A stretch of DNA of 64,000 nucleotides from Candidatus Omnitrophota bacterium (lineage in GTDB: Bacteria; Omnitrophota; Gorgyraeia; Zapsychrales; Fredricksoniimonadaceae). The position numbers were made by a program, and so were the translations under genes. The notes under the pieces are model-generated. The model was not told the origin of the DNA, did not search any database, and saw only the letters and a program-made list of their open reading frames with translations. This document shows, piece by piece, positions 3,181 through 26,726 of the stretch (its first letter is position 1; the number at the start of each line of letters is the position of its first letter). Location of the stretch: the NCBI GenBank assembly GCA_903860135.1, contig CAIOPG010000017.1:203364-267363 (forward strand). Reading direction: 5' to 3'.

Positions 3181-3249
3181 AATACTATATATGAGTTTGC
3201 CGGATTATTCAAGGATATCAGGGGGAAAAATAGGGCGCGCGGGACCTCT

Positions 3250-4575
3250 TCACACGATGGATCTTTCATTCTCAATGACGTTGTAGATATCAGTCCGACG
3301 CCCACGATCCCAATCAAGATAAACCTGCCTGGACAGCTCCTTGTTCAACGGCAAAGAAGCCACTTTATTCGCCTGAAATACCTTCAAGACAGCAGGGGCG
3401 TACTTTTCACACAGCCAGCACTCTCCGGGATCTTTGAAGCAAGCCCTCATCCTGTCATATATGGCCGAAAAGTCTTCCTCGCATATATTTCCAAAGGAAA
3501 TGTTAAGGAACTCACAGGGCTGAACATCTCCTTTGGCATTGAGATAAAACCTGTCCGTGCCGCCGGCGGTACAGCCAAACACAAGAGGGTCCTCCTCGAT
3601 GATCTGGGCCGATATGGACGGGTACTCCCTGTACCGCGCCTCATTATTATACGCATGCACCAGTTCTTTAACCTTGTCCAGATCCGCTGCCGTGAAATTT
3701 TCGATCCCCGATTCCAGCCAGGCGCCAGAAGGCTTCGGCTTGATGACCTGCACCAGGCAAGCGCCAAAGTCCCTGGCTTTGGCCATCACCTGCGCGAAGG
3801 CACCATTATAAAAATCTTCCCGCCGGAGGCAGGCATTAAAGGCGACCGGCACATCCGCCGCGTGGCAGCAACGGATACCCTCCTGCAAAATAGCCCAGGC
3901 ATTTTCAGACCCCATGAAGGCATTCACATATTCAGGAACAGCACTATGCAAAGAGAACATGACCCCCGTCAACCCTAAACCTTTAAGCTCCCGCAACCGC
4001 TCCACACTCACCCCGTCACCTGTTGAATTGATCCATATCTCGGCGCCGCCATTGATAGACCCGCACAACCTCTTCAACCGGTCGTAGACCAAAAAAGGAT
4101 CCCCGCCTTCAATGTTAAAGAACGCCACGCCCTTCGCCTGCATGCGCTCAACAGCCTTAACCATAAGATCAATGGACACATCTTTGCCCGTGTCTTTTCT
4201 CTGATAACAATGCGCGCAGTGGTGCCGGCACGCCGATGTCACCGAGATCAGGGCCGTTGTGCACGGCAATTTGGCATCAAACACCATGAACTTGCGGCAA
4301 GCCGTGAAGAATGCCTTCGAAGGAAATCCGGGGATATATAATCCCACCCGGACATAGCGCCCGATGGCGACAAATTTGTTATGATAGATCTTGGACAAAA
4401 AATACAATAGCCGCTTCAGGAACATCCTATATCTGCCCACCGATAGCCTGCCCTTTAAAAGCTCCGGTAAGTAATAAAAGAAAATACACACCTTCAACTT
4501 AATGGAGAACAAAACCTTGTTGAATCCTGTGACATTCTTCACGCTGATCATAAGCCCCCTGCCTGCCGGTACCAT
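3250..4575 (-). CDS. radical SAM protein with C-terminal SPASM/twitch-like Cys cluster
   Basis: CRHHCAHCY (CxxxCxxC) radical SAM motif; C-terminal CTAGGTDRF...CEFL..C cluster; last gene of overlapped operon. Confidence 0.7.
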   Translation of the reverse strand: MVPAGRGLMISVKNVTGFNKVLFSIKLKVCIFFYYLPELLKGRLSVGRYRMFLKRLLYFLSKIYHNKFVAIGRYVRVGLYIPGFPSKAFFTACRKFMVFDAKLPCTTALISVTSACRHHCAHCYQRKDTGKDVSIDLMVKAVERMQAKGVAFFNIEGGDPFLVYDRLKRLCGSINGGAEIWINSTGDGVSVERLRELKGLGLTGVMFSLHSAVPEYVNAFMGSENAWAILQEGIRCCHAADVPVAFNACLRREDFYNGAFAQVMAKARDFGACLVQVIKPKPSGAWLESGIENFTAADLDKVKELVHAYNNEARYREYPSISAQIIEEDPLVFGCTAGGTDRFYLNAKGDVQPCEFLNISFGNICEEDFSAIYDRMRACFKDPGECWLCEKYAPAVLKVFQANKVASLPLNKELSRQVYLDWDRGRRTDIYNVIENERSIV

Positions 4576-5582
4576 TTGACCGTATTCCTTATCCCCTCAT
4601 CAAGGCTATAACGGGCCCTGAAGCCAAGGACTTCTTCGGCCTTGTGCGTGGCATATTCAATATTGTCATAGAACATATTCACCCGCCCGCGCGTCAACAG
4701 GGGCGGCGCTTTCATCTTTAACAATGTATAAACCAGCTCCATCAGGAAACCCGCCGGATAAACAAGCCATTTAGGCAACAGCAGCGGCTTCTTCACACCG
4801 GCATAACGGCAAAACAGTGAGAATATATGATCCATGCCGGCACAATCCGTGTCCGCAATGATCAGGTGCTGCACCCCCCTCAACCGCCGGATGAACGCCA
4901 GATAATAGGCCTCGGCAAGATCCGGGGCATAGATCACATGGAACTTGTTCTTGCGCGACCCGGGAGCAACCGCAACCCCCTGCTCAACGGACCTGATATA
5001 TTCCAAAAATACCGTATGCCGGCCATTCTCTCCGTAAACCCATACCGGATCGAGCACGGTTAGATTGATTGCTTCACGCCGGGCAAAGTCCATGGCACGT
5101 TCAGCCGCCAGGCATTTTGTATCACGGTAATGATTCAAACAGCACGGGAATATCCTGTCGAGAAAATAGGGATAATGCGCCTGATACGGTGAAGCCTCAT
5201 CTTTGACCTTGAACGAAGGCTCTTCCCCGTACACCGCATTGGTCCCTGTCATGATCACATCCTTGATCCCGTTCGCCACACAGGCTTCAAGGACATTCAA
5301 GGCCCCCTCAACATTCGTCTGATAAAAAGACTGGTACTCTCCCCAGTCTTTAACATACCCCGCATTATGAATGACAAAATCATGCCCTTGTAACGCCTCG
5401 ATCAACGACGCCCTGTTGCCAATATCTCCATATTTATATTCAACCGCATACCCTTGAATATCGGAAAGATCACTGCCCCGACGGACAAAACAGGTCACGG
5501 CCACCCCATGCCGGGTGAACAGGCTGACGAGATGGCTGCCGATAAACCCGTTAGCACCTGTGATCAATACGTTACGCTTCAT
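4548..5582 (-). CDS. NAD-dependent epimerase/dehydratase family (extended SDR) protein
   Basis: N-terminal VLITGANGFIGSHLV Rossmann motif; YxxxK region; 344 aa. Confidence 0.75.
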   Translation of the reverse strand: MKRNVLITGANGFIGSHLVSLFTRHGVAVTCFVRRGSDLSDIQGYAVEYKYGDIGNRASLIEALQGHDFVIHNAGYVKDWGEYQSFYQTNVEGALNVLEACVANGIKDVIMTGTNAVYGEEPSFKVKDEASPYQAHYPYFLDRIFPCCLNHYRDTKCLAAERAMDFARREAINLTVLDPVWVYGENGRHTVFLEYIRSVEQGVAVAPGSRKNKFHVIYAPDLAEAYYLAFIRRLRGVQHLIIADTDCAGMDHIFSLFCRYAGVKKPLLLPKWLVYPAGFLMELVYTLLKMKAPPLLTRGRVNMFYDNIEYATHKAEEVLGFRARYSLDEGIRNTVKWYRQAGGL

Positions 5583-6855
5583 GTTGTAGCTTTCTCAGGA
5601 GGACACCCGCATTGTGCCCGCCAAACCCGTAGGATGTGGATATCGCCGTATTAACTTCCGCCTCGATCGACGTGTGGACAAGGTTCAAATTCTCACGCGG
5701 ATCAGCCACGCCATTGCCGTGCACACGCGATGCCTTGATAGCCAGGGCCGTCACGGCGATCTCCAGCGCCCCGCTGGCGCCCAGCGTATGGCCGAGGATC
5801 CCTTTGGTTGAATTCACATAAGGCTGATCTGCCCGTGGACCAAAAATAGCGGCAATGGCATCGGCCTCAATGCTGTCATTGACAGCGGTCCCGCTGCCAT
5901 GGGCGTTAAGATAATCAATCGTCTGCCCCTGTTTGAGATCCCGTAATAATCGCCGGATCTGAGCGCCCGAAGGATCCATCTGGACAATATTATGCGCATC
6001 ACTGTTGCTTTGAAAATCAGCGATCTCCGCGTAGATCGCCGCCCCCCTGTTTAAGGCATGCTGATATTCTTCGAGCACAAGAACGCACGCGGCTCCTTGA
6101 GCGAACAGAAATCCTGTGCTTGTCTTTGAAAAAGGATAAGGAACGCCGTCAGCAGACCGGGTAAGGACCCCGAGCACATCAAAGCCCCGCATGATGCCGC
6201 CCATACTATCAGCCATACATTCCACGCCGCCGGTCAATACAACATCCTGCGGGCCATTCCTGATCGCATGATACGCTTGCCCAACGGCCACGGTCCCCGA
6301 CGCGCACGCGGCATTGACCGTATAACTGGGGCCCTTTAATCCATGCGCAATAGATATCCAGCTGGCCACCGCATTGGGCATCAGCATGGGTACAACCATG
6401 CGATTATAACGGACTTGCTGAATATCCATGGCAGAGGGGATTTCACTCTTATCCTTCACGATATGCGACAAGTAAGAACAAAAACCGGTTTCAAGGCTGC
6501 TCATCCCGATACCAACGATCACCCCGGCATCCATAATGTCCGGCGCTACAAACCCGTCCTCACGGCGGACAACAGAAAAACCGGCATCCTTCAAGGCCAG
6601 GGCTGCCGCGGCCAGAACCAACTTGTCTTCATCCTGCATGATCTTATTGTAATAAGAGGGAAACCCGTAGGCATCAAGATCAACGTGAGGACAAGGGCTG
6701 TAATAACGCGACTTGAACTGATACCCGCGTTCAAAATTCCCAGGTATCTCCCTGATACAACGCCGCCCATCAAGAATACCTTCGAGGAAATCCTTTTTCC
6801 CGACGCCTGTTGATGTGACCGGCCCGAGCCCGGTGATCACAACCCGGCGCATCAT
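5572..6855 (-). CDS. beta-ketoacyl-[ACP] synthase (KAS I/II, FabF-like)
   Basis: Active-site NAACASG Cys, HGSGT and GHTLGASG His motifs; 427 aa. Confidence 0.8.
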   Translation of the reverse strand: MMRRVVITGLGPVTSTGVGKKDFLEGILDGRRCIREIPGNFERGYQFKSRYYSPCPHVDLDAYGFPSYYNKIMQDEDKLVLAAAALALKDAGFSVVRREDGFVAPDIMDAGVIVGIGMSSLETGFCSYLSHIVKDKSEIPSAMDIQQVRYNRMVVPMLMPNAVASWISIAHGLKGPSYTVNAACASGTVAVGQAYHAIRNGPQDVVLTGGVECMADSMGGIMRGFDVLGVLTRSADGVPYPFSKTSTGFLFAQGAACVLVLEEYQHALNRGAAIYAEIADFQSNSDAHNIVQMDPSGAQIRRLLRDLKQGQTIDYLNAHGSGTAVNDSIEADAIAAIFGPRADQPYVNSTKGILGHTLGASGALEIAVTALAIKASRVHGNGVADPRENLNLVHTSIEAEVNTAISTSYGFGGHNAGVLLRKLQHEA

Positions 6856-7868
6856 GGCTGCTCCTTCAAATAACGGACAAGGGCCGCCAGGTAATCCTGG
6901 CGTTGATCAAAATCCCGGGCGCGCGCCACAAGCCCCCCCAGATCAACGCGTCTTTGCCCGTCGCACAAGCGCTTTGTTGCCGCCGTGATCTTGCCGATCC
7001 TGAAGAAGGTCAACCCTTCCTGGCTTGCCCTCGACAAGAACAACCCTTCATCCGCAGGTTGTACGGTAAAAAGCAACTCATACTCTCCGGCCTCGCCCAG
7101 GAACAGCAATTCTTTGGGCAGGGATAAAGCCGCCGCCCCCAACACACCGGCGTCAATATAAGGCAAGTCTGCCACCTCATACCCTACGCCATTAATGTCA
7201 GCCAGCGTATTCAACGCATTAAAAACACCGTCGCTGGTGTCTATGCAGCACCTGGCATAAAGGCCTATGAAGGCAGCTGCCTGAACACGCAACGGGAATC
7301 GGTTGCGGATCATGCCGGCCAACAACCGTAAACGGCCATCATCCGCGTAAAGCTTGAGCACCGCCTCGACATTTCCCAGCCCGATCCTGCCAGAAATATA
7401 AATTGAGTCCCCGACCTGAGCCCCTTTCCTGCCCAAAGGATATCTTCCCGGACTGCCTATAACAGCGGCGGTATAACGCCAGTGCGCAGCTTTCCCGAAA
7501 TCACCTCCCATAAAAGCCGTGCCGGCCTGCGCGAGCACATCAGCCACTCCTTGTGAGAACTTCTGAATATAATGCTCATCCCAGGCCTTGCTCACGGCCA
7601 TGGCATGGCCATAGAGGCACGGCTTGCCCGCGCAGGCAAGGATATCGCTGATCCCCCCGACAGCAACATTCCACCCCAAAGAGTACGGATCATCTTCACG
7701 CAACATGTCTTCGGCGGAAAACTCATCCATCGTAAAAAGAAGTTGCTTGTCATCCACCAAAACAACTTCCGCGTCAGACTCAAAAGGCCGGCTCAAACGG
7801 CAACGATCAGCCGGGAACATGCTGTCGATCAGGCGAATCGTTCTGGCCTCGGCGTCAATCTTACGCAT
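6852..7868 (-). CDS. AIR synthase-related (PurM-like superfamily; ThiL/HypE-like) ATP-dependent enzyme
   Basis: PurM-like N- and C-domain pattern (DDAAVL-like DAEVVLVDD, GGDT-like GGDFG); 338 aa. Confidence 0.5.
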   Translation of the reverse strand: MRKIDAEARTIRLIDSMFPADRCRLSRPFESDAEVVLVDDKQLLFTMDEFSAEDMLREDDPYSLGWNVAVGGISDILACAGKPCLYGHAMAVSKAWDEHYIQKFSQGVADVLAQAGTAFMGGDFGKAAHWRYTAAVIGSPGRYPLGRKGAQVGDSIYISGRIGLGNVEAVLKLYADDGRLRLLAGMIRNRFPLRVQAAAFIGLYARCCIDTSDGVFNALNTLADINGVGYEVADLPYIDAGVLGAAALSLPKELLFLGEAGEYELLFTVQPADEGLFLSRASQEGLTFFRIGKITAATKRLCDGQRRVDLGGLVARARDFDQRQDYLAALVRYLKEQP

Positions 7869-8820
7869 GGATCAGCTCCAGCTTATCCTTGGCCATGGTC
7901 ACCCCGCATGGCAGAAAACCCTGGGGATCCCCGTCAAATTCCACTTCGACCGCAGGCTGATCGGCCTTGACATCAACCCTCCGGGCATACGCAAGAGAAA
8001 TTTGCCGGCTGTTGCTGATCGGTTTCCCGCTATAGACAGCCATCAGGCAATGCGGCACGTGCCTCCAGGCGACATCTTTGACAGCTAATAAATAAAACCG
8101 TCCATCCCCTTCGATCAAGGTGCCGTTGACCTTGATGCCGGAGGCGATATGCCATGTTTTTCCTATGGAAAGATTACACAATCCCGGCCATATCTCTGCC
8201 CTGCCGTCACAGGACACAGCTAATTTTAAACGACGGTATTGCCTGAACGACCTGATAATAGCCCTGAGCGTTCCTACGCTATCCCCCCATCTTTTCCTGC
8301 CCCCGGCATTAGCCTCTCGGGCCACCGAAGCCCCCAGGCCGATATTGACGCAACAGGCAAAATAACGCGTCACACGCTCCGGCACGCCCTGCCCGGGACA
8401 CCCATCAGCGCCAGCCGTGTTCAAGGTTATTTGCCCCAGCTGGATCTGCGTTGTACGCCCCGCCAGGAGCACGTCGAGCGATCGCTCTATAGCCCCATAA
8501 GGAACCGCATAGCTTTTACAGAAATCCGGGCTTGTTCCGGTATAGATAACACCCAAACTGGCCCTGGAGAGCCTGGATCCGTTCTCATCGTAAAACCCGT
8601 TGATGACCCTGTTGATCGTGCCATCCCCCCCCACCGCAACGACCACATCATAGCCCGCCCTGTTGGCTTCTTTCGACAAGGTGCACGCATCGTGCAATGA
8701 TCCCGTTATCGCGCATTCAAAGATGACTTTCCGCGCCACCAACAAAGAACGCAGGCGCGCGATCAGCGGCGCGCTCTGCCCATGCCGCGACCCTGGATTA
8801 AAAATAAAGAAATACCTCAT
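7861..8820 (-). CDS. lipid kinase, diacylglycerol-kinase catalytic domain family (YegS/BmrU/ceramide-kinase-like)
   Basis: FIFNPGSRHG start and VAVGGDGTINRVING motif typical of DAGK_cat. Confidence 0.65.
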   Translation of the reverse strand: MRYFFIFNPGSRHGQSAPLIARLRSLLVARKVIFECAITGSLHDACTLSKEANRAGYDVVVAVGGDGTINRVINGFYDENGSRLSRASLGVIYTGTSPDFCKSYAVPYGAIERSLDVLLAGRTTQIQLGQITLNTAGADGCPGQGVPERVTRYFACCVNIGLGASVAREANAGGRKRWGDSVGTLRAIIRSFRQYRRLKLAVSCDGRAEIWPGLCNLSIGKTWHIASGIKVNGTLIEGDGRFYLLAVKDVAWRHVPHCLMAVYSGKPISNSRQISLAYARRVDVKADQPAVEVEFDGDPQGFLPCGVTMAKDKLELIHA

Positions 8821-10004
8821 ACGGCCGTCATTCTCCTGCCAATGGACTGAAACACATCGAGGACCCTGCCCACCGTGCCCTCGGACAAATTGGCTCCGGC
8901 GATCAATCGTATCTTGTTCTCATGCACCGGCACCGATGGAGGAACAAACGGTGTTACCAGAATATTGGCCTCATGGATCATTTTCGCCAGGCGCGCGCAA
9001 TCATCCAGATCCCTGACCATGATCGACGTGATCGGCGCACTCCCGTCTGTCACATTAAAACCGCTGGCAACAAGGCCTTGGCTGATCATCCTTTTGTACC
9101 GCCACATCTTTTCACTCAGGGCCGGAAACTCAGCATCGATGATATCGAGGACCGCTTCCACACCGGCAAGTACTGGCGGCGGCAAAGCGGTCGAATAAAT
9201 AAAAGCGGGGCATGAATACTTCAAATACTCGATAAACGCTTTCCTGCCACCGACAAAACCGCCGGCATTGGCCAAAGCCTTGCCCAAAGAGGCCGTGTAT
9301 ATCCCCTCGAAATTAACAACATTCTTTTCTTCCAAAACCCCCCGGCCTGAACGGCCGAGCACCCCGATCCCGTGGGAATCATCAATGACCGGCACCGCGT
9401 TGAATTGCGTGCACAACCGGATGATCTCATCACAAGGGGCCAGGCTCCCTTCGGTCGAAAAAACCGACTCGGTCACCACAAAGACCCGCCTGTACATTTC
9501 CGTCTTTGAAAGGACCTTTCTCAAATGATCCATATTGTTGTGCAGGAAAGGCCTGATCTTACACCCGGCCAGGCGTACCCCCTGGATGAGCGACGCATGC
9601 GCATAATGGTCAATGATGATCAGGTCTTCGGGCCCGGCCAATGACAGGAAGATCGCGCCATTGGCCTGATAAGCTGACGGGAAAATAATACCGGCCTCCA
9701 CCCCCGCGAACGTTGCCAGCCTTTGTTCCAGCCGCGTCAGGATCGCCATGGAACCGGTGGCTATCGGCGTGCCGCACATCGACGCTCCATAGCGCCCTGC
9801 GGCCAGCGCTATCGCCCGGGCAACGCGCGGGTCAGCGGCAAGGCCAAGATAATTATTAGCGGCCAGATTGATAAAGGCCGTGCCGTCAATGATAATGGGA
9901 TCCCCCAGGCTCGACTCAATATGGGCATAATACGGATTGAAATCATATTTTTGCGTCAAGCTTTTGTCCACCACCAGCCCGGTATAAAAAGGTTCGCGCG
10001 CCAT
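8817..10004 (-). CDS. alpha-oxoamine synthase family PLP enzyme (serine palmitoyltransferase / 8-amino-7-oxononanoate synthase / Kbl-like)
   Basis: NYLGL substrate-loop motif, class-II aminotransferase fold length 395 aa, PLP-Lys region; adjacent ACP. Confidence 0.8.
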   Translation of the reverse strand: MAREPFYTGLVVDKSLTQKYDFNPYYAHIESSLGDPIIIDGTAFINLAANNYLGLAADPRVARAIALAAGRYGASMCGTPIATGSMAILTRLEQRLATFAGVEAGIIFPSAYQANGAIFLSLAGPEDLIIIDHYAHASLIQGVRLAGCKIRPFLHNNMDHLRKVLSKTEMYRRVFVVTESVFSTEGSLAPCDEIIRLCTQFNAVPVIDDSHGIGVLGRSGRGVLEEKNVVNFEGIYTASLGKALANAGGFVGGRKAFIEYLKYSCPAFIYSTALPPPVLAGVEAVLDIIDAEFPALSEKMWRYKRMISQGLVASGFNVTDGSAPITSIMVRDLDDCARLAKMIHEANILVTPFVPPSVPVHENKIRLIAGANLSEGTVGRVLDVFQSIGRRMTAV

Positions 10005-10255
10005 CAGGGCTCCTTGAGGTCAGGATAATGCTGTTGCAGGCGCGCGACAATATCGGCCACATGAGCAATCCCGATAAAGTCCTTTTCCGCGATCGTGATA
10101 CTGAATTCATCCTCGAGGGCATTGATGATGATGAGCATGGCAAATGAATCGACCCCCAGGTCATGCCGCAGGTCCGTCGCGGGCGTGATCGTGGTCCGTT
10201 CTTTCCCTTCAAGATTCTTTTCAATGGTCCTGATGACCCTGTCTTGCAAGCTCAA
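10004..10255 (-). CDS. acyl carrier protein
   Basis: 83 aa acidic protein with LGVDSF phosphopantetheine-attachment-like motif; start overlaps AOS stop. Confidence 0.65.
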   Translation of the reverse strand: MSLQDRVIRTIEKNLEGKERTTITPATDLRHDLGVDSFAMLIIINALEDEFSITIAEKDFIGIAHVADIVARLQQHYPDLKEP

Positions 10256-10270
10256 GGGCGCCTCCTCTGG

Positions 10271-11491
10271 TTAAACATCCACCGCGCGATAACACCGCGT
10301 CGGCTGATGACTATCGGTCATGACCGCACACCTGTTACAGTTCAGGCATTTGGCTTTCCAGCCGTGATCCGCGATCAATTGATCAACGAGATCCGGTTCA
10401 CTGATAAACGGCCGCGACAAACCAACCATATCCGTTGCACCCCGTTCAACGGCAGTGGACATCTCTTGCCCTGTCCTGAAGCCACCAACAGAAATAATGG
10501 GGATCGCCGTGTGCTGTTTGGCCTGCCTGGCATAAGCCAGATTGTACATCGGAGAGAACAGCCTGATACCCGGCCTCATGAAGGGATAAAGCACATACCG
10601 GCGCCATAACCGCCCCAGGATCGATGCCGTCTTGTATTTCGGGTTATAGCGCCAGATGGCATCGAGCGGTACTGTCTGCCCCCTGAATATGTTCAAGGCC
10701 CGTTCCATGGTGCCACAACTGATCTCAATGGCATCCACCTTCATTTGATCAAGGAAACGCACCAAATGAATGAGCGGTGCCCCCTCCAAGCCATGCTGAG
10801 GCTGGTCATCGCCGCTGATCTTCACCCATAATGGAAAATCATGGCCACAGCGCTCCCTGACACGTTCAATGATCACTTTCAAAAACTGCGGCCCGATCCC
10901 GGTCTTGCGATCTATCCCAAAAATATCCCGACGGTCATTGATCGACGGCAAAAGGAATTGATGCACCAGATACCCATGCGCCGCATGGATCTGCACCCCA
11001 TCAAAACCTGCCTTTTGACATCTCAAAGCCGCTGTGGCAAAACCTTCTGCCAGCGCCCAGGCTTCGCTGGTTGTCAAGGCTTTCACCTTGACGCCAAAAT
11101 ACGCAGAACTCTGGCTGGATGCCCCGCGTGCCCAGCCACCCACGGCGCGGGCCGACGTCTGCCGCCCGCTATGCGCGATCTGCATGAGCACCTTGCCGCC
11201 ACGGGCATGGACCAGGCCGGTCATGGTTTTATACAGAGGGATCTTTGCGTCATCCTCGATCCCCGCCTGCCCCGGTTGCATCGCCCGCCCGCAAGGCGTG
11301 ACATACGCAAATCCCGTCAACAAAGCACCGATATGCTGCCCGGCCAAAGCCGCGTAAAGATCAAGGTATGCCTTTGTCGGCCGTCCGTCATCGTCGCACA
11401 GCCCTTCAAACGTCGCCGATCTCACGATCCGGTTCGCCAGGGTCAGGCGGCCTGTGGCCACGGGCTGAAAAAGTTTATCCATACGCCTCAT
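10271..11491 (-). CDS. NADH:flavin oxidoreductase, Old Yellow Enzyme family
   Basis: HAAHGYLVHQFL motif, TIM-barrel OYE signature, 406 aa. Confidence 0.75.
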   Translation of the reverse strand: MRRMDKLFQPVATGRLTLANRIVRSATFEGLCDDDGRPTKAYLDLYAALAGQHIGALLTGFAYVTPCGRAMQPGQAGIEDDAKIPLYKTMTGLVHARGGKVLMQIAHSGRQTSARAVGGWARGASSQSSAYFGVKVKALTTSEAWALAEGFATAALRCQKAGFDGVQIHAAHGYLVHQFLLPSINDRRDIFGIDRKTGIGPQFLKVIIERVRERCGHDFPLWVKISGDDQPQHGLEGAPLIHLVRFLDQMKVDAIEISCGTMERALNIFRGQTVPLDAIWRYNPKYKTASILGRLWRRYVLYPFMRPGIRLFSPMYNLAYARQAKQHTAIPIISVGGFRTGQEMSTAVERGATDMVGLSRPFISEPDLVDQLIADHGWKAKCLNCNRCAVMTDSHQPTRCYRAVDV

Positions 11492-12495
11492 GACCTCGGA
11501 TTGGCATGCAGGTCAAACAGGAAGCCTACCAGCATATACGACATGAGAAATAACCATAACGCCAGCTCGGGATTGAAGAAAGCCACGATCGTTGCCTCAC
11601 CGCAGACACACGCGCGGAAATTCATTTTCAACGACGCATAGGTCTTTTCTCCGGTAGCATGGCAATAGTAAAGGAACCCGGTCCAGGCCTGCATCAAAAT
11701 TGTCAAACAGCCTAGGATCACAAAAGTGCTGTTGATCGACACCTCGAGCATATGCGTGGCGCGCAAGATGAAAAATGTTACCGTCGGCAGGAATGTCGCA
11801 AAAAGCGCTATCAGGCGCGCCTTATTGATCCCGTAGCGGACAACAAGGGTTTCCTTCCCGGCCGCTTTATCCCCTTCATAATCCTTGAAATAGGTGTAGA
11901 ACGTCATCAGGCCGTTAATGATCAGGATAAGCAATAATGCGGAAGTACGGTGCGACGCCAGGAAGGATGCCTGGGTCGGGCCGCAGGCATAGAACCCGTA
12001 GAAAGGCGCCATGGTGATCATCAGCCCGAAAACAATATTACCAAGGATGCCATGCCCTTTGGCGTATTCATAAACAATGTTAAATATCACACCGGCCAAA
12101 AGAAAGATCACCGCCACCGGCTCCAGATACAACCACGTCACCGCCGCTGCAAGGATCAACATAACGATCGAAAGCCCCAGCGCCTTGTTGGCATCGAGTT
12201 CACCGGTCACCATGGGGCGTTCGGGCGCGTTGATCCTGTCCTCTTTAAGCCCCAGGTAATCATTGATGATCTGGTTGATCCCCCAGCTTAAAAACAGCAG
12301 GCACAGGATAACGATCTTCTTTTCATCACCAGGCAGAACTTCAATCGTCCTTTCCGGATGATGCCTGGCCAGCAATTCATAATAAGCCACGCCGATCCAC
12401 CCGGCTATCCCGGTCACAAAGGAATAATAAAGCCGCATTGATTTGATATATGCCGTGATGAACTTGATAAAGACCTCCCTGGTATCAGACCCCAT
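11488..12495 (-). CDS. UbiA-family aromatic/lipid prenyltransferase (integral membrane)
   Basis: Polytopic; first Asp-rich motif NDYLGLKED and second DYEGDKAAGKET (DxxxD...G..T) typical of UbiA superfamily. Confidence 0.65.
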   Translation of the reverse strand: MGSDTREVFIKFITAYIKSMRLYYSFVTGIAGWIGVAYYELLARHHPERTIEVLPGDEKKIVILCLLFLSWGINQIINDYLGLKEDRINAPERPMVTGELDANKALGLSIVMLILAAAVTWLYLEPVAVIFLLAGVIFNIVYEYAKGHGILGNIVFGLMITMAPFYGFYACGPTQASFLASHRTSALLLILIINGLMTFYTYFKDYEGDKAAGKETLVVRYGINKARLIALFATFLPTVTFFILRATHMLEVSINSTFVILGCLTILMQAWTGFLYYCHATGEKTYASLKMNFRACVCGEATIVAFFNPELALWLFLMSYMLVGFLFDLHANPRS

Positions 12496-12505
12496 CGTTA
12501 TAGAA

Positions 12506-12997
12506 TCAAGCCTTCAACCCATGGAACCACGTGTGCATCATGCCCGCCAGGGCCTTTTGCTCTGACGAAGAGATCTTGCCCATCAAATGTTCAACGGTCT
12601 TGATATACCCCGGCCAGGCGTCATCAAGCAGGCGCGACCCGCGCGCGGAGACCCGGATCACCTTGACCCGCTTGTCGCCGGAACGCGACGAACGCTCGAT
12701 CAATTTCTCACGCTCCAGTTTGTCCAGCAGGCGCGTCATGTTCGACGCTGTGACCATGAGCCGCTTGCCGATATCACACTGACTCAACCCGACATCCCCG
12801 CCCTGATGCTTGATGATCATCAGCACATTCATCTTCGCCGGCGTCAGGTCAAAGGTGTCCAGGTATTTCGAGACCTTGTCGAACAGGACGGTATACACCA
12901 GCACCAGCCCGTAAAAAGCTTCCTCGTAATACTGCCCCTTGCCCGCCTTGATCCCGAAAGCTTCCAGATAATCCATAGCCCCCTCCATGTCTGGCAT
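12506..12997 (-). CDS. MarR family transcriptional regulator (longest ORF extends to 13144 but overlaps miaB; likely start at MPDM/MEGAM)
   Basis: Winged-helix MarR core (LSQCDIGKRLMVTASNMTRLLDKLEREKLIER...DKRVKVIRVSARG). Confidence 0.7.
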   Translation of the reverse strand: MPDMEGAMDYLEAFGIKAGKGQYYEEAFYGLVLVYTVLFDKVSKYLDTFDLTPAKMNVLMIIKHQGGDVGLSQCDIGKRLMVTASNMTRLLDKLEREKLIERSSRSGDKRVKVIRVSARGSRLLDDAWPGYIKTVEHLMGKISSSEQKALAGMMHTWFHGLKA

Positions 12998-13028
12998 AAC
13001 AATATCACAACTTAGTTGATATGTCAAC
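12986..13028 (-). promoter_or_regulatory. candidate sigma70-like promoter (TTGACA-N17-TATTGT) with imperfect inverted repeat TATCAAC..GTTGTGATA (putative MarR operator) immediately at marR start
   Basis: Read on minus strand at miaB/marR junction: TTGACATATCAACTAAGTTGTGATATTGTTATG. Confidence 0.3.
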
Positions 13029-14348
13029 AATCTCGCCTTTGAGCTGATGCGGGGTGGCGCGGGTGATGCGGGCGTTGAGGATATCTCCGGGTTGGGCGAT
13101 GCCGTGCGGCAGGACAACGATCTTGTTGGCGTCATTGCGGCCATAAAGGGCGTTGGCCTTGATATCCCGCGCGCTTTCGATCATGACAGGCTGTATCCGG
13201 CCAACAAGAGCTTTGTTTTTCTGAAGGGAAATATCGGTCTGGAGCCGGTTGATCCGCACGATGCGCGCGGTCTTTTGAGCTTCGGTAACATCATCCTTGA
13301 GCGTTCGCTCGGCCTCGGTGTTGGGCCTGACGGAATATTTAAACATGAACGCCGTATCAAACTGAACCTCGTGCATGAGGCGGACCGTATCTTCGAACTC
13401 GATATCTGTTTCCGTCGGAAATCCAACGATAATATCCGTCGATAAGGCGATGTCCGGGCATGCACGGCGCAAGCGTCCGACCAAAGAAATAAAATCAGCC
13501 CCCGTATAGTGCCGATTCATCAGGGCCAGGACCCGGTCATGACCCGCCTGCAGAGGTAAATGCACCTGTTTGCAAACTTTCGGATTTTCAGCAAGGACAC
13601 GGATCAGGCTGTCCGGAAAATCCTTGGGATGCGGCGATGTAAAACGGATACGCTCGATGCCCTTGACCGTTGATACAGCGCTCAGCAAAGCGGCAAAATC
13701 CTGATCTTCATGCTGATAAGAATTCACATTCTGCCCGAGCAAGGTCACCTGTTTGAAGCCTTCATCGGCCAGGCGCTTCACCTCGTCGAGAATATTGCTC
13801 ACCGACCGACTGCGTTCACGCCCGCGGGTAAAAGGCACAATGCAGAATGAACAGAAATTGTTGCACCCGCGCATGACCGCCACCCAGGCATTGATCCCTG
13901 AAGTGCGCGCCGGGTACACATCCGCATAGGTCTCAAATTCCGACAAGGTCACATCATAGCCGGAATGTTGATCGCGGGCATGGCCCGATTGACACCCCGC
14001 CGCCAGCGCCGACGCCAATAGTCCAGGCAACCGTTTATAACTGTCCGGCCCGGCCACCACATCGAGCGCCAGCGCCTTATCCTCGATCAACTCCTTGCGC
14101 AACCCCGTCGCCATGCACCCCAGGATCCCGATCACCACCGGCCGCCCCTGACGCCGGTGACGGATCTCATGCACATGCCCATACACCTTACGGTGCGCAT
14201 TCTCCCGCACCGAGCACGTATTCAAAAGGACAATATCCGCCGCCGCCTCATCATCCACAAACACATACCCCGCCTCAATAAGGATCGCCCTCACGAGCTC
14301 GGAATCGTATTCGTTCATTTGGCACCCGAAAGTCTGTAAAAATATCAT
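13005..14348 (-). CDS. miaB: tRNA-2-methylthio-N6-dimethylallyladenosine synthase MiaB
   Basis: MIFLQTFGCQMNEYDSE N-terminal MTTase domain, CNNFCSFC radical SAM motif, TRAM C-terminus. Confidence 0.85.
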   Translation of the reverse strand: MIFLQTFGCQMNEYDSELVRAILIEAGYVFVDDEAAADIVLLNTCSVRENAHRKVYGHVHEIRHRRQGRPVVIGILGCMATGLRKELIEDKALALDVVAGPDSYKRLPGLLASALAAGCQSGHARDQHSGYDVTLSEFETYADVYPARTSGINAWVAVMRGCNNFCSFCIVPFTRGRERSRSVSNILDEVKRLADEGFKQVTLLGQNVNSYQHEDQDFAALLSAVSTVKGIERIRFTSPHPKDFPDSLIRVLAENPKVCKQVHLPLQAGHDRVLALMNRHYTGADFISLVGRLRRACPDIALSTDIIVGFPTETDIEFEDTVRLMHEVQFDTAFMFKYSVRPNTEAERTLKDDVTEAQKTARIVRINRLQTDISLQKNKALVGRIQPVMIESARDIKANALYGRNDANKIVVLPHGIAQPGDILNARITRATPHQLKGEIVDISTKL

Positions 14349-15530: not shown

Positions 15531-16526
15531 TCAATTCAATTTATTGATCAAATTCACAACCAGCGCCGCTATAACATCTTTTTCCTTTGCCTGACTCTCG
15601 GCGATCAGAAGTGTTATCGCGACCAGCGCATTATCCGCGATGCGCTTGCCCCCGTCAGCCTTGTACAGTATCCTGTTCCGATCAAGGAACCACACGAACA
15701 GGGCGGCCGCAATGCGCTTATTGCCGTCAGAAAATGCATGGTTCTTAACGACCAGATAAAGCAAATTGGCCGCCTTTTCTTCCACGCTGGAATAAAGATC
15801 TTTCCCGCCGAAGGTCTGGTAAACAGCACCCAGGGCACTCTTAAAGGAGGCGTCTTTCTCATTGCCGAACAAGCCGCTGACCCCAAATTTCTGCCGCATC
15901 TGGTCGATCACCCTTAAGCCTTCTTCATAGGTCAACTGATAGCACTCTTTAGCGGTAGACGACTTGATCCGGGTCCGCCCGTGATCATAATCATCCAGAA
16001 CATCCAGGCCATAACTGTAATCACGAATGACCTCGAACAACCCTTTAGCTTCATCGCTAGTCAAAGCCTTGCGCTCGCTCACATCCGCCAGCAATTTCAC
16101 TGCCTGCTGAAGGGTCTTTAGACTGGCCGTATGTTCTTTAAGCCTCTTATCATTGATCGTATACCCCTGAATCAAATGCTGCTTCAAGACATTCGTGGCC
16201 CAGATGCGAAATTGTGTCCCGCGCTTTGATTTAACCCGGTAACCAACAGAGATGATAACGTCCAAGTTATAAAAGACGGTCTCGTACGCTTTACCGTCGC
16301 TAGCAGTTATCCGGAAATTCCGGATAACTGACGACTTAACGAGCTCTTTTTCTTTAAAAATGTTCCCAATGTGCTCATTAATGGTGCGTAGATCTTTACT
16401 AAAAAGCTCTGCCATTTGCTTTTGAGAGAGCCAAACAGTTTCATCCTGTAACTTTACCTCAACAGAAACACCTACCCCCTGCTGGCGAAAAACAATCAAA
16501 TCTGTCTTTTTTACTTTATCATCCAT
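15531..16526 (-). CDS. RhuM-family / Fic-Doc domain fusion protein (Doc-like toxin domain)
   Basis: N-terminal RhuM-like region (YNLDVIISVGYRVKSKRGTQFRIWAT); C-terminal HAFSDGNKR Fic/Doc motif. Confidence 0.7.
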   Translation of the reverse strand: MDDKVKKTDLIVFRQQGVGVSVEVKLQDETVWLSQKQMAELFSKDLRTINEHIGNIFKEKELVKSSVIRNFRITASDGKAYETVFYNLDVIISVGYRVKSKRGTQFRIWATNVLKQHLIQGYTINDKRLKEHTASLKTLQQAVKLLADVSERKALTSDEAKGLFEVIRDYSYGLDVLDDYDHGRTRIKSSTAKECYQLTYEEGLRVIDQMRQKFGVSGLFGNEKDASFKSALGAVYQTFGGKDLYSSVEEKAANLLYLVVKNHAFSDGNKRIAAALFVWFLDRNRILYKADGGKRIADNALVAITLLIAESQAKEKDVIAALVVNLINKLN

Positions 16527-16690: not shown

Positions 16691-18055
16691 CTATCTATCC
16701 CTGCGTGATGCTCTCTTTAACGCCTCAACAAATCTTGGATTTATATCTCTGCCCAATGATTCAGCCTTGTGCAAATCATCCCACGCCTCATCATATTCTT
16801 TTTTCAAATAAAATGCTGACGACCGATTAATAAACGCTTCAGAAAAATTAGGGTTTAATTGAATGGCCTTATTGAAGTCCAAAATGGCCTGGTCAATATC
16901 GCCTTTGTTTAAATACCCGAACCCTCGATTATGGTAAGCATTGGCATCACGGGGGTTTAATTCTATAGCTTTGTTATAGTCGGAAATGGCTCGACCGTGG
17001 TCATTACTGCTTTGATAGCACACTCCTCGATTATAGTAAACCAGCGCATCAGCAGGGTTTAGTGCAATAGCCCGATTATAGTCAGAAATAGCTCGATCAA
17101 AGTTGCCTATATTTTGATAAACAAGCCCTCGATTATTGAAAGCATCCGCGTCATTAGGATTTAATTCTATAGCTCTACTATAGTCGGAAACGGCTTGGTC
17201 AAGGTTGCTCATTTTTTGATAGACCGCTCCTCGAGCGTAATAGGCATTGGCCAAATTAGGATTTAATCCGACAGCCTTATTAAAATCAGCAATGGCCTGC
17301 TCAAAGTTCCCTTTTTCCGAGTAAGCGTTACCTCGATTAGCAAACACGTCAGCATTATCTGGCTCTAATTCTATGACCTTGCTGTAATCCGAAATGGCCA
17401 GGTCAAAATTGCCCTGAGCTTTATAAACAAGCCCTCGATGATGGTAGACTAGTGCATCTTTAGGATTTAGCTCTATGGCCTTGCTATAGTCAGAAATCGC
17501 CTGAGCATCGTCACCCTTCTTGCCATAAACAAACCCCCTATTAGCATAGGCAATAGCATAATCAGGGGCTAATTCTATAGCTTTGCTATAGTCCAATAGA
17601 GCTTGGTCAAAGTTACCTTTCTTCTTGTAGAAAACACCGCGACTGTTATAGGCATCTGCGTAAGCAGGATCTAATTCTATGGCTTTACTATATTCTGCCA
17701 TAGCCCCGTCAAAGTTTTGTTTTTCCTCATATTCCAGCCCCCTATCATGCGCTTCCTTTGCAGCTTGCCGGTCATTTGAAGAAGTATTGACTGTGGGCCC
17801 TGAAACCTCTAAGATTTTTTGCTCAACCACAACCGTCTTATTGGGCAAAGCTCTCAGTGTTTCAGCCTGATCTTTTCTAATCATGCTAAAAGGAATTGTC
17901 ACTGTTTTGCCGTTGACGTCTTTGAGAGTGACATCGCTATCTGTCTTCTCAAGGATTTCGCCCTTTTTTACAACACCTGACTTTAACTGGACATCTTCAG
18001 GGAAGGCAAGGCCCGAAACCGTCAGGAACGCAGCCAACAGAATAACCTTCTTCAT
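16691..18055 (-). CDS. secreted tetratricopeptide-repeat protein
   Basis: Signal peptide MKKVILLAAFLTVSGLA; >10 TPR units with recurring AIELNP/AY.NRG motifs. Confidence 0.75.
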   Translation of the reverse strand: MKKVILLAAFLTVSGLAFPEDVQLKSGVVKKGEILEKTDSDVTLKDVNGKTVTIPFSMIRKDQAETLRALPNKTVVVEQKILEVSGPTVNTSSNDRQAAKEAHDRGLEYEEKQNFDGAMAEYSKAIELDPAYADAYNSRGVFYKKKGNFDQALLDYSKAIELAPDYAIAYANRGFVYGKKGDDAQAISDYSKAIELNPKDALVYHHRGLVYKAQGNFDLAISDYSKVIELEPDNADVFANRGNAYSEKGNFEQAIADFNKAVGLNPNLANAYYARGAVYQKMSNLDQAVSDYSRAIELNPNDADAFNNRGLVYQNIGNFDRAISDYNRAIALNPADALVYYNRGVCYQSSNDHGRAISDYNKAIELNPRDANAYHNRGFGYLNKGDIDQAILDFNKAIQLNPNFSEAFINRSSAFYLKKEYDEAWDDLHKAESLGRDINPRFVEALKRASRRDR

Positions 18056-24419: not shown

Positions 24420-24989
24420 TCAAGGGCTGAACAGTTGATGAAAATCGATAGATAGGACTTCAATACTTTTAACAAGATATTGAAAAGACCCTTCAACGCT
24501 ACGGCCTTCGGTCACAACTGTGATCTGTGGTGATCCAGGGATATCATAGGGATCATCGATCCCGGTAAAATGTTTGATCTCCCCGGCCCTGGCCTTCTTG
24601 TAAAGTCCTTTAGGGTCGCGGCGCTCACACTCCGTCAACGAAGCTTCCACATAAACTTCGATAAAATTACGGCAGCTGCGCCGCACGGCCATGCGTGCGT
24701 CGTTATAGGGTGAAATGAACGAGGCCACCACGATCACCCCGTTGCGCTCGAGCAAAGAAGCGATATAACCAACACGCATGATGTGCTCATCACGGTCCTT
24801 CTTCGAGAAACCTGTCAGAGGGAATACCGCACGCACCGCATCCCCGTCAAGATGTTCGACACGAAATCCCTTGGCCTTGTAAAACGCACACAGCTTCTCG
24901 GCCAATGTGCTTTTACCGGAACCGGACAGCCCCGTTAACCACACCACAAAACCCTTGTTTTTTTCTTCTGGCATCATCAGAAACCCCAA
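24420..24989 (-). CDS. cysC: adenylyl-sulfate (APS) kinase
   Basis: GLSGSGKSTLA P-loop, LDGD motif, 189 aa; start overlaps TpsB stop. Confidence 0.8.
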   Translation of the reverse strand: MGFLMMPEEKNKGFVVWLTGLSGSGKSTLAEKLCAFYKAKGFRVEHLDGDAVRAVFPLTGFSKKDRDEHIMRVGYIASLLERNGVIVVASFISPYNDARMAVRRSCRNFIEVYVEASLTECERRDPKGLYKKARAGEIKHFTGIDDPYDIPGSPQITVVTEGRSVEGSFQYLVKSIEVLSIDFHQLFSP

Positions 24990-26677
24990 CGTACGGCAAG
25001 GTGGAACTGAGCCGCATGGTTGTCGGAAGGGTCATCGCCCAGCGGAAACCCTGTGTCAAAGGTGATATTGGAATCAGGGCTTAAATAAAACCTGAGACCG
25101 ATGCCAGCCCCGACCAAGGTTGTATCTTTTAACGACGACACCTGCTCTCGCTTACGATTAAAAACTCGCCCGGCATCAATGAACGTCGCCAATGAAAGCG
25201 CATCACGCCAGGTCTTGTCCTTCATGCCGACAACGTGCCAGGTCTCAGGGATAAAATAAACAGGGATACGCCATTCCTGCGACACACTAAAGCCGCTGTC
25301 GCCGGAGGCGTCGTTCTCGGGATAGCCCCTTACCGAATACATCCCCCCCAGGTTAAACTGCTCCAGAGAATTCAGGGCCGCATCGCTGAACTGCCCTGAA
25401 GCCTGCGAAATCAGCGCCATTCCCAGCGGCAAGCGCTGGATCCTCGCGAGATTGAGCGTCTCGTACACAAAACTTCCGCCGGAATCCATACGGCTGGCAA
25501 GGCTGTCATGGTGAGATGAAGATCCCATGAACCCTGCAGCACCTGTGTGCACATCAGCACCTGCAAAAGTGCGGCCGGTTGCATCATTAAACGTCACCCT
25601 CGGCCCGGCCACAAGCACCCGGTTACGGTCAAACGAAAACTTGTCCTTCAAAACGTCGGTCTTGGAATCCTTGATCTCAAAACGAACATCACCCTCCAGT
25701 CTCACCCTTGTATCTTCAACAAACGTGTGCGTCCATCCGGAGATAAAACTTATCAAATTGCCTGTCACATGCAGATCATACAAATTCTTTTGAAGACGGC
25801 TTTGCGCCCTACCCACATCCAAATGAAACACATCTCTCGTCTTGGGGATGGGCATTTCATAATGCATGGAACTCGCGTAAAGTGCCCCTGCCTCAGCCAT
25901 TGAAAATGTTGACTTAAGGCTATCCCCATGCCCGGTGAGATTATTATCAGTCAGGTGCAGGAGGTACCTGTCTCCACCGGTCAGCTTGGATCCGGTTAAA
26001 TTATACTCCAGCGACGCATGCAGCGGCTGCTGATCCTGAACTTTCATCAGAATATCGGTCGTACCAGGTTCATGTCCCGGCGCAAGGTAGGTCGTGGCAA
26101 AACGATCCGGCTGGGTGTTAATCTTGCGCAAGGCGTTCTCCAGATCCCCCATTTCAAAATGATCGCCACTGTTGAGTCCCAAGGCATTCCGGTACAGGCT
26201 TTTGCTAAACCAGCGCTCCCCCTCAACAGACACCTTACCGACGCGCACTTCGAGGATATGGATCGATACCACCCCGTCTACGACCTTCTGGGGTGGAATA
26301 TAAGCCCGGCTTGTTGTATACCCATGCTTATGGTAAAGAATAGTGATGCGATCAGCGAATTTCTGAAGATCGGCCAAGGACATCATCGTCCCTTCAAGTT
26401 GATGTGCCTCGGCCAGTAAATCATCGGACTTAAAAAGCCCGTTCCCCTCAATGACGATTTTCTTGACCAGAAATTGAATACCTTCCGCCACAACCTTCTT
26501 CTCTTCTTTCTTTTCTATGACAACTTTCTTCGAAGGCTGTACGGAGGCCTTATTCGCGCGCTCCAAAGGATTGGTCTGGGTGGTCAATTGACGCTGAACG
26601 ACTTCATTGACAGGTTGGGCAAAGACAAAAGCTGTCTGTACCAAGCATACACACAACAAAATTATGGATATTCGCAT
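24977..26677 (-). CDS. two-partner secretion outer-membrane transporter (TpsB; ShlB/FhaC/HecB family)
   Basis: Signal peptide, POTRA region, Omp85-type C-terminal beta-barrel ending ...LAVRWGF. Confidence 0.8.
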   Translation of the reverse strand: MRISIILLCVCLVQTAFVFAQPVNEVVQRQLTTQTNPLERANKASVQPSKKVVIEKKEEKKVVAEGIQFLVKKIVIEGNGLFKSDDLLAEAHQLEGTMMSLADLQKFADRITILYHKHGYTTSRAYIPPQKVVDGVVSIHILEVRVGKVSVEGERWFSKSLYRNALGLNSGDHFEMGDLENALRKINTQPDRFATTYLAPGHEPGTTDILMKVQDQQPLHASLEYNLTGSKLTGGDRYLLHLTDNNLTGHGDSLKSTFSMAEAGALYASSMHYEMPIPKTRDVFHLDVGRAQSRLQKNLYDLHVTGNLISFISGWTHTFVEDTRVRLEGDVRFEIKDSKTDVLKDKFSFDRNRVLVAGPRVTFNDATGRTFAGADVHTGAAGFMGSSSHHDSLASRMDSGGSFVYETLNLARIQRLPLGMALISQASGQFSDAALNSLEQFNLGGMYSVRGYPENDASGDSGFSVSQEWRIPVYFIPETWHVVGMKDKTWRDALSLATFIDAGRVFNRKREQVSSLKDTTLVGAGIGLRFYLSPDSNITFDTGFPLGDDPSDNHAAQFHLAVRWGF

Positions 26678-26726
26678 ACTGACCTTTTTAAGTTTAACCA
26701 GAATAGTACCACTTCAAACCCCAAGA

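Follow-up and report, generated by a model that had tools for sequence, protein, structure and literature searches.

What does an enzyme of the PurM superfamily do between a ketoacyl synthase and a lipid kinase? The question is raised by a 64,000-nucleotide stretch of DNA from a Candidatus Omnitrophota bacterium (contig CAIOPG010000017.1, positions 203,364 to 267,363), here called the window, in which a 338-residue protein resembling ThiL is encoded within a lipid-type operon. ThiL phosphorylates thiamine monophosphate (TMP) to thiamine diphosphate (TPP). We find that the gene for this protein, our target, is an obligate member of a nine-gene cluster found across many phyla of anaerobic bacteria, and we tentatively propose that its product acts on a lipid as the second of two tandem kinases. 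Coordinates are positions in the window, and residue numbers count the initiator methionine as 1.

A ThiL-like protein that is not ThiL

The target lies in a tightly packed, minus-strand operon with the transcription order MarR-family regulator, UbiA-superfamily transferase, Old Yellow Enzyme (OYE)-type flavoprotein, acyl carrier protein (ACP), α-oxoamine synthase, lipid kinase, target, ketoacyl synthase (KAS), short-chain dehydrogenase/reductase (SDR) and radical S-adenosylmethionine (radical-SAM)/SPASM enzyme. Judged by its conserved homologues, the open reading frame (ORF) is a real gene, beyond chance. It had been predicted to be translationally coupled to its neighbors on both sides, and the junctions, read directly, bear this out: the target ATG, with a GGAG upstream, overlaps the lipid-kinase TAA by 8 nucleotides (nt) (ATGCGTAA, within GGAGCTGATCCATGCGTAAG), and the target TGA overlaps the KAS ATG by 4 nt (ATGA, within AAGGAGCAGCCATGATG), the latter ATG being preceded by an AAGGAG Shine–Dalgarno sequence. 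The Spt-like gene expected in the same operon is also present, as the oxoamine synthase gene (Table 1). Promoter and terminator scans gave counts at chance level and were given no weight.

Membership in the PurM superfamily, the starting point of the original prediction, holds. Both diagnostic Pfam domains exceed their gathering thresholds, AIRS at 50.3 bits (threshold 24; 3.8e-13) and AIRS_C at 27.7 bits (threshold 23.1; 3.5e-6), and an AlphaFold model based on 20 aligned sequences (pLDDT 90.4, pTM 0.89) matches solved ThiL, SelD and HypE structures. Foldseek aligned this model to 2yxz, 3c9t, 2yye and 3vyt at E ~1e-24 with TM scores of 0.7–0.8. Because the model superposes about equally on ThiL, SelD and HypE, the structural comparison confirms the superfamily only.

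Sequence profiles separate the families further. The best NCBIfam model for the target is ThiL (TIGR01379; 115.5 bits, E 2.4e-33), which it matches below the equivalog cutoff of 184.15, and the four NF0043xx ThiL equivalogs score 90.6 (cutoff 301), 66.7 (441), 61.4 (324) and 60.5 (204). ThiL is nevertheless the closest family by about 70 bits, ahead of SelD (46.6 bits, cutoff 125), the sll0787 family (27) and HypE (20.9), and the PurM and PurL models gave no match at E<0.01 in the same NCBIfam search. Among solved structures, too, the top eight matches by sequence are all ThiL (E ~1e-14, roughly 22–25% identity). Ten representatives sampled down our HMMER list, spanning the family and its outliers, all fall below the ThiL cutoff. 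We looked for a clean score gap to canonical ThiL and rejected the idea, as the scores run without a break through sister families, from 471 down to about 105 bits; the family is therefore better defined by its D-E-F/Y-S-x-E-D motif and genomic context than by its ThiL score.

For residue roles in ThiL we relied on the AbThiL and PaThiL papers. In PaThiL the strictly conserved metal ligands are D30, D47, D75 and D211, to which D122 and the S213-D214-G215-L216 loop are added; a metal links D214 to the phosphate of TMP, and TMP forms hydrogen bonds with H54 and Y189 (PMC13254938). The G-D-D loop of ThiL contacts the ribose-phosphate of ATP (PMC13254938 and the AbThiL paper). In alignments through AaThiL and TtThiL, target residues D32, D48, D75, D210, D123 and S212-D213-G214 match these ligands and this loop, so that every metal-binding Asp sought in the ATP site is present. 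These residues are invariant across the family alignment; in our conservation set of 83 cluster-linked relatives, D123, D210, S212 and D213 are each kept in 83/83.

Other features depart from ThiL. The target loop E30-S31-D32 replaces G-D-D, keeping the last Asp alone, and on the acceptor side the TMP-contacting position carries an acidic residue: AaThiL H50 (in 'GVHF', seven residues past the second Asp) aligns to target D54, the equivalence of PaThiL H54 with AaThiL H50 being drawn from motif spacing and not from structural superposition. The surrounding family motif reads D48-E-F-S-x-E53-D54, with E53 and D54 in 83/83 relatives. A C-terminal extension of about 35 residues carries R318, kept in 82/83, and a terminal helix. 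A sister family at 26–30% identity (P0200, P0270) retains the E-D pair and the C-terminal Arg, and more ThiL-like outliers (P0230, P0240, P0252, P0267) have neither.

Features of the other superfamily members were sought as well. In HypE a C-terminal Cys carries the carbamoyl and cyano group; no such Cys is conserved in the target family, in which Cys is frequent only in columns 207, 208 and 260 and the C-terminus is variable. SelD has an N-terminal glycine-rich loop with a catalytic Cys/Sec and a Lys, and residues 1–30 of the family hold no conserved Cys or Lys. Together, these scores and alignments place the target as ThiL-like, not ThiL, with a predicted architecture in which the catalytic machinery of ThiL is kept and the acceptor pocket is retooled.

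An obligate member of a conserved nine-gene cluster

We searched related genomes with the operon proteins of the window by tblastn and found, among the 80 best loci, the same nine-gene set wherever the contig was long enough: UbiA, Fe-S OYE, ACP, oxoamine synthase, lipid kinase, ThiL-like protein, KAS, SDR and radical-SAM/SPASM enzyme. In the window the cluster is flanked by the genes for NadA, MetX, MetW and MiaB; across these loci they are not retained as its neighbors. OYE went undetected in five loci (L004, L027, L034, L067, L070) and KAS in about eight; the KAS is an accessory member. The co-occurrence with Spt-like genes in other genomes that the original prediction asked about is thus borne out, with the same cluster recurring across about 13 phylum-level groups.

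An unsupervised all-against-all clustering of ORFs of at least 90 residues from 82 non-redundant loci, many of them truncated, recovered the same families: ThiL-like in 82, lipid kinase in 73, SDR in 69, UbiA in 68, KAS and oxoamine synthase in 67 each, OYE in 65, radical-SAM in 64 and ACP in 18, the last undercounted because most ACP genes fall below the 90-residue cut-off. The next family, a 153-residue helix-turn-helix (HTH) regulator, occurs in 25/82 loci. Beyond the nine genes and this regulator, the clustering found no further conserved family in the 82 loci, and in particular none of thiamine genes, of N-acyltransferases or ceramide synthases, or of head-group transferases.

The association also holds in reverse. 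With UbiA as the anchor in metagenome contigs, the ThiL-like gene is present in all 43 loci that are long enough, the only exceptions being two decayed clusters (L130, L165), and no other kinase type was found in its place among the UbiA-anchored metagenome clusters. Every locus with sufficient sequence also contains UbiA, and the nine-gene context is kept in more than 120 loci. The ThiL-like gene is an obligate member of the cluster. As for the two decayed loci, L130 has its KAS in three fragments and is missing the ACP, oxoamine synthase, kinase and ThiL-like genes, and L165 has its ThiL-like gene split into two ORFs and no kinase; either could reflect an assembly error.

Gene order varies around a stable core. 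Bacteroidota carry a cyclic permutation (ThiL-like, KAS, SDR, radical-SAM, then UbiA, OYE, ACP, oxoamine synthase, kinase), the sister family has the order UbiA, ACP, oxoamine synthase, SDR, radical-SAM, kinase, ThiL-like, OYE, and locus L133 shows a further one (radical-SAM, kinase, ThiL-like ... oxoamine synthase, SDR). In three of these arrangements, those of the window, the sister family and L133, the lipid kinase lies directly 5' of the ThiL-like gene. Fusions link other members: the oxoamine synthase and lipid kinase form one 790-residue ORF in L067, a Verrucomicrobiota metagenome-assembled genome (MAG; ~3220–5590 of that locus), and in metagenome contig L102, and SDR and radical-SAM form one 798-residue ORF in L156. 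A single database fragment, P0171, joins YegS_C to AIRS and is suggestive only; other long ThiL-like entries, considered as domain fusions, were mostly just longer ORFs.

Individual loci show further variation. In L004 an acyl-ACP-synthetase-like AMP-binding gene stands in place of KAS, a substitution seen in L004/L005 only and rejected as a general rule. The rearranged sister-family clusters L086, L087 and L133 carry an extra epimerase with DUF1731, with a PS-DH dehydratase and a KAS a few kilobases (kb) away, and in L133 a protein resembling the Fe-S electron-transfer flavoprotein–quinone oxidoreductase adjoins UbiA. In the high-GC metagenome locus L099, a 1471-residue protein combining a BcrAD_BadFG ATPase with DUF2229 (8306–12721, plus strand) directly follows the ThiL-like gene and takes the place of the usual KAS–SDR–radical-SAM block; this architecture is that of activase/dehydratase-type enzymes, such as the plasmalogen/ether-lipid PlsA–PlsR or Ger proteins.

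A sporadic family of anaerobes

In the protein database the target has one homologue at 98% identity and more than 100 at 44–62% (E 1e-92 to 1e-138), the close ones coming from Omnitrophota, Desulfosporosinus, Dehalobacterium, Clostridia, Halanaerobiales, Spirochaetes and Proteobacteria. A HMMER search of 1.84 billion representatives returned 95 clusters at E<=1e-30 and 943 at E<=1e-10; the wider ThiL-like cloud comprises 5905 representatives. A survey of GTDB with one genome per species found relatives in at least 225 of 185,579 species genomes. The best 80 of these 225 species loci, on which our taxonomy and gene content are based, span about 13 phylum-level groups of anaerobes: Omnitrophota, Bacillota, Bacteroidota, Spirochaetota, Calditrichota, Latescibacterota, Acidobacteriota, Verrucomicrobiota, Desulfobacterota, Sumerlaeota, Auribacterota, Mcinerneyibacteriota and Proteobacteria. 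Cultured carriers include Desulfosporosinus orientis DSM 765, D. fructosivorans, D. hippei, D. lacus, Petroclostridium sp. X23 and Acetivibrio alkalicellulosi DSM 17461. In D. orientis DSM 765 the genes of the lipid kinase and the ThiL-like protein lie at about 2,178.4–2,180.4 kb of CP003108.

Source records (NCBI, JGI) often name family members 'thiamine-monophosphate kinase' or 'thiamine-phosphate kinase', although these proteins score below the equivalog cutoffs for ThiL. Such names probably represent systematic misannotation that affects predictions of the vitamin B1 pathway in MAGs.

A candidate route to a lipid diphosphate

Our preferred reading, which we hold tentatively and would not call probable, is that the target acts second in a tandem of kinases and converts a phosphate monoester (R-O-P) on an amino-lipid into a diphosphate (R-O-PP) that the UbiA-type enzyme then uses. 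In the predicted sequence of steps, the Spt/Kbl-like oxoamine synthase and its own ACP would first form an α-amino-ketone lipid, with the KAS loading or extending the acyl group. The Fe-S OYE and the 3β-hydroxysteroid dehydrogenase (3β-HSD)-type SDR would next adjust an enone, ketone or alcohol, and the DAGK/YegS-type kinase would phosphorylate a hydroxyl to give R-O-P. The ThiL-like enzyme, dependent on ATP and Mg, would then transfer the γ-phosphate in line onto R-O-P to give R-O-PP, which the UbiA-type membrane enzyme would use, most simply as an electrophilic donor, before the radical-SAM enzyme finished the product.

Several features make this order attractive. ThiL is the closest family and its metal ligands are kept, the acceptor side is altered, the linkage to the cluster is strong in both directions of search, and the lipid-kinase gene stands just ahead of the ThiL-like gene in three arrangements. 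α-Oxoamine synthases join an amino acid to an acyl thioester, and the acidic E53-D54 pair would suit an ammonium-bearing acceptor, as in an unacylated oxoamine-synthase product. The UbiA family uses diphosphate substrates, and a lipid kinase, a phosphate kinase and a diphosphate-using UbiA enzyme together make, by analogy, a complete logical unit; the precedent is phytol kinase VTE5, followed by phytyl-phosphate kinase VTE6 and then UbiA-type VTE2/ChlG. The cluster UbiA has an unusual Asp-rich motif 1, N-D-x-x-G-x-x-E-D (residues ~78–86), compared with the canonical N-D-x-x-D-x-x-x-D, its Gly and E-D being invariant in 67/67 relatives, and its motif 2 reads D-x-x-G-D. This non-canonical motif 1 may point to an unusual diphosphate substrate.

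Other observations weigh against the tandem-kinase proposal. Bacteroidota place the two kinase genes at opposite ends of the cluster. On the target itself, the fold comparison does not set ThiL apart from SelD and HypE, the ribose loop G-D-D of ThiL has become E-S-D, and the loss of the TMP-contacting His is read through an equivalence of PaThiL H54 and AaThiL H50 that comes from motif spacing alone. The S-D-G loop occurs also in PurL, an activator of amide oxygens, and the conserved Asp is therefore no proof of a phosphate acceptor. On the UbiA side, a saturated primary or secondary alkyl diphosphate is a poor electrophile for UbiA-type SN1 chemistry, so an allylic or otherwise stabilized center must be assumed. 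BaiCD-like and 3β-HSD-like families classically act on enone and allylic-alcohol motifs, and the presence of both enzyme types in one cluster therefore makes an allylic alcohol a plausible intermediate.

The nature of the UbiA enzyme also supports the alternative that survives best, in which the target is a phosphate-to-diphosphate kinase whose product is not the UbiA donor. The nearest solved relative of the cluster UbiA is the archaeal digeranylgeranylglyceryl phosphate (DGGGP) synthase (PDB 6m31, 1.1e-10), whose NCBIfam models also match it, and that enzyme takes a lipid phosphate, geranylgeranylglyceryl phosphate (GGGP), as its acceptor; the diphosphate might therefore not be the UbiA donor. 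UbiA would then use an ordinary isoprenoid diphosphate to prenylate an amino-lipid 1-phosphate made by the lipid kinase, handling it as GGGP is handled, and the ThiL-like enzyme would go on to build a pyrophosphate head group or an intermediate activated for the exchange of head groups. The fusion of oxoamine synthase to lipid kinase in L067 and L102 fits this arrangement, and the catalytic evidence from the ThiL-like protein serves it equally. We nevertheless judge it unlikely, if worth serious thought, as no head-group transferase is conserved near the cluster in the 82 loci, lipid pyrophosphates are rare as end products, and the invariant Gly of UbiA motif 1 suggests an unusual diphosphate and not a standard prenyl diphosphate.

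A different chemistry was put forward in the original prediction, by which the enzyme could catalyze amide activation, cyclization or dehydration on an N-acylated amino-lipid. In its broader form, the amino-ketone intermediate would be phosphorylated on a carbonyl, amide or enol oxygen and so driven to cyclize or dehydrate, in the manner of PurM, PurL or HypE, for example from an amino-diketone to a pyrroline or pyrrole, or from an N-acyl amino-ketone to an oxazole. Such chemistry is established in the PurM superfamily, the target fold is equally near HypE and SelD, and the oxoamine-synthase product would be a reactive amino-ketone. KAS, ACP and oxoamine synthase moreover recall the logic by which PigJ and PigH yield a pyrrole from a β-ketoacyl-ACP and serine, with a weak PigJ match of 68.8 bits. 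Set against this, the 82 loci hold no conserved N-acyltransferase or other amide-forming family; ThiL is by far the closest family, with PurM and PurL models unmatched, HypE at 21 bits only and the HypE and SelD Cys residues absent; the KAS that a pyrrole route would need is missing from about eight clusters; and the co-conserved lipid kinase and UbiA are left with no connecting logic. We consider carbonyl activation improbable.

Finally, that the target is the organism's own thiamine-phosphate kinase, in the operon by chance, is very improbable indeed: ThiL is its best family match and sources label many relatives accordingly, but the target scores 115.5 against 184.15 bits and falls further below the other four ThiL models, the ten sampled representatives fail too, the TMP-contacting His is replaced across the family, the nine-gene context recurs in more than 120 loci with no thiamine gene conserved in the 82 clustered ones, no Rfam family, TPP riboswitch included, was found anywhere in the 64-kb window, and a sporadic presence in 225 of 185,579 species genomes contrasts with the near-universal ThiL of thiamine producers, so that the coincidental placement named as a refutation in the original prediction does not apply.

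The operon and its neighborhood

The coordinates of the target and its operon partners are collected in Table 1.

Table 1. Genes of the lipid-type operon in the window, in order of transcription
Feature	Position	Strand	Evidence
MarR-family regulator	12506-13144	-	Pfam MarR 1.2e-12; variable accessory
UbiA-superfamily membrane transferase	11488-12495	-	Pfam UbiA 2.9e-29
OYE-type flavoprotein (FadH/BaiCD/BilR kind)	10271-11491	-	Pfam Oxidored_FMN 3.6e-49
Dedicated ACP	10004-10255	-	Pfam PP-binding 3.4e-10
Pyridoxal phosphate-dependent α-oxoamine synthase, class-II aminotransferase Spt/Kbl/BioF type	8817-10004	-	Aminotran_1_2 2.6e-44
DAGK_cat/YegS-type lipid kinase	7861-8820	-	DAGK_cat 3.2e-21, YegS_C 1.8e-10
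ThiL-like PurM-superfamily protein (target), 338 aa	6852-7868	-	ATG start; AIRS and AIRS_C
FabF-like KAS	5572-6855	-	ketoacyl-synt 1e-36, C-terminal domain 7e-24; FabF 270 bits, below cutoff
Extended SDR, 3β-HSD/HpnA/OleD type	4548-5582	-	Epimerase 2.4e-29, 3Beta_HSD 7.4e-22
Radical-SAM/SPASM enzyme, last of the conserved block	3250-4575	-	Radical_SAM 2.8e-15, SPASM 3.8e-5

The oxoamine synthase matches BioF (305 bits), Kbl (288) and Spt (265) NCBIfam models, all below cutoff; against three Spt models it scores 265, 226 and 178 bits (cutoffs 640, 500 and 670), and its best PDB matches are nearly tied between Kbl (3e-61) and Spt (2.5e-57). Its ACP gene adjoins it in related loci as well. The KAS keeps, in alignment to 1j3n, the intact Cys-His-His triad of decarboxylating condensing enzymes. 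The SDR, which matches the HpnA and OleD models below cutoff, is probably a ketoreductase. The OYE matches FadH/OYE, BaiCD and BilR NCBIfam models, every one below cutoff, and is without an NAD(P)H domain; its C-terminus, ending ...CLNCNRCAVMTDSHQPTRCY, carries a CxxCxxC...C motif that is a probable 4Fe-4S site. The radical-SAM enzyme has a hydrophobic N-terminal extension of about 100 residues and a CxxxCxxC motif that reads CRHHCAHC; SkfB (2e-9) is its sole PDB sequence match and is uninformative on kinship to lipid radical-SAM enzymes, the tetraether type included. An Fe-S flavoprotein and a radical-SAM enzyme are consistent with strictly anaerobic hosts.

The regulator differs among lineages, being of the MarR family in Omnitrophota and of the XRE/HTH_19 type in Firmicutes; a MarR gene lies upstream of the cluster in eight Omnitrophota loci (among them L003, L006 and L009–L012). 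In its listed form the MarR ORF runs for about 140 nt over the 3' end of miaB (13005–14348, minus strand), so its true start probably lies at a codon further inside. At 13027–12999 there is a sigma-70-like site with 10/12 matches.

Beyond the operon, the segment 14000–18000, just upstream of the cluster region, has a GC content of 0.42–0.47 compared with about 0.50–0.55 elsewhere and encodes a RhuM/Fic-domain protein (15531–16526) and a tetratricopeptide-repeat protein (16691–18055); it may be a mobile or foreign insert. The window also encodes, at 24977–31361 on the minus strand, a two-partner secretion (TPS) pair made up of a 566-residue ShlB/FhaC-type transporter and a 1544-residue exoprotein with a TPS domain and GLUG repeats, and, at 54443–59091, an RND efflux pump with its outer-membrane factor. 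The secretion pair and the pump indicate a diderm host, consistent with Omnitrophota.

Implications

If the target family is what we propose, the name 'thiamine-monophosphate kinase' is probably wrong for hundreds of database entries, and vitamin B1 autonomy is overpredicted in MAGs of Omnitrophota, Clostridia, Bacteroidota and others. Lipid or amino-alcohol phosphates would join the substrates of the PurM/ThiL scaffold as a new class, and the gene would mark a compact cluster, spread horizontally, in at least 225 species of strict anaerobes, whose product could be a new membrane lipid or a biomarker of anoxic environments.

The pathway marked by the ThiL-like gene may be new altogether. A full-text literature search that took in few subscription papers found no description of the cluster or its product, and a prior description is possible; the Black Sea sphingolipid paper mentions none of the cluster neighbors. 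A more ambitious version of the idea, which we regard as speculative and unlikely in this complete form, is that the cluster encodes a new lipid pathway of anaerobes in which a sphingoid-like, non-isoprenoid alcohol is pyrophosphorylated by the DAGK-type and PurM/ThiL-type kinases and then serves as the alkyl donor for the DGGGP-synthase-like UbiA. Should that prove true, the PurM superfamily would have in the target its first lipid-phosphate kinase, and the cluster would represent an 'archaeal-style' diphosphate-driven alkylation or ether formation on a skeleton drawn from a fatty acid and an amino acid. As cultured carriers exist, the function is directly testable.

Comparison with known systems

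The closest known relative is ThiL itself (TIGR01379; PDB 3C9T, 5DD7, 8YKU), with which the target shares the two-domain PurM fold, all metal-binding Asp residues, a GGD motif, the D-x-S-D-G loop and the G-E-(D/Y)-Y-E-L-L-F-T motif; in-line transfer of the ATP γ-phosphate to a phosphate monoester is the likely chemistry of both. Unlike ThiL, the target scores below the equivalog cutoffs, has the E-S-D loop, a Glu-Asp pair for the TMP-contacting His and the C-terminal extension, and belongs to a lipid-type cluster of sporadic distribution that is never beside thiamine genes. HypE, SelD, PurM and PurL have the fold and ATP/Mg site in common with it, but the target lacks the conserved C-terminal Cys of HypE and the N-terminal Cys/Sec-Lys loop of SelD, and its scores against these two families are far lower than against ThiL.

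The sll0787/MSMEG_0567 'AIR synthase-related' family (TIGR04049) is likewise an orphan paralogue of the ThiL-like kind with a fixed place in a conserved cluster, the nitrogen-starvation cluster, which also includes a radical-SAM enzyme and a flavoprotein. The target, at 27 bits against a cutoff of 321, is distinct from that family, and its partner genes are different.

Bacterial sphingolipid genes of the Caulobacter and Sphingomonas type offer a parallel for the cluster as a whole, in that an oxoamine synthase with a dedicated ACP occurs together with a reductase of the epimerase family and a DAGK_cat kinase; the acyl-ACP-synthetase-like gene of variant L004 adds to the likeness. The bacterial ceramide set consists of Spt, a dedicated ACP, bCerS, the reductase CerR and the DAGK-type ceramide kinase CerK. 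By comparison, the cluster described here has no bCerS-type N-acyltransferase, its oxoamine synthase falls below three Spt cutoffs, and it adds UbiA, Fe-S OYE, radical-SAM/SPASM and ThiL-like kinase genes that are foreign to the ceramide pathway.

For the two-kinase arrangement, the parallels lie in plants and in thiamine synthesis, where ThiD makes hydroxymethylpyrimidine diphosphate (HMP-PP) for ThiE. Those routes use CTP-dependent membrane kinases or the ribokinase-type ThiD, whereas here the pair would be DAGK_cat and PurM-type, and the carbon skeleton would come from an oxoamine synthase and not, as in the plant route, from isoprenoid metabolism. What the VTE5/VTE6/VTE2–ChlG system would share with the cluster, by analogy, is its logic: an alcohol is converted to a monophosphate and then to a diphosphate, which a transferase ionizes.

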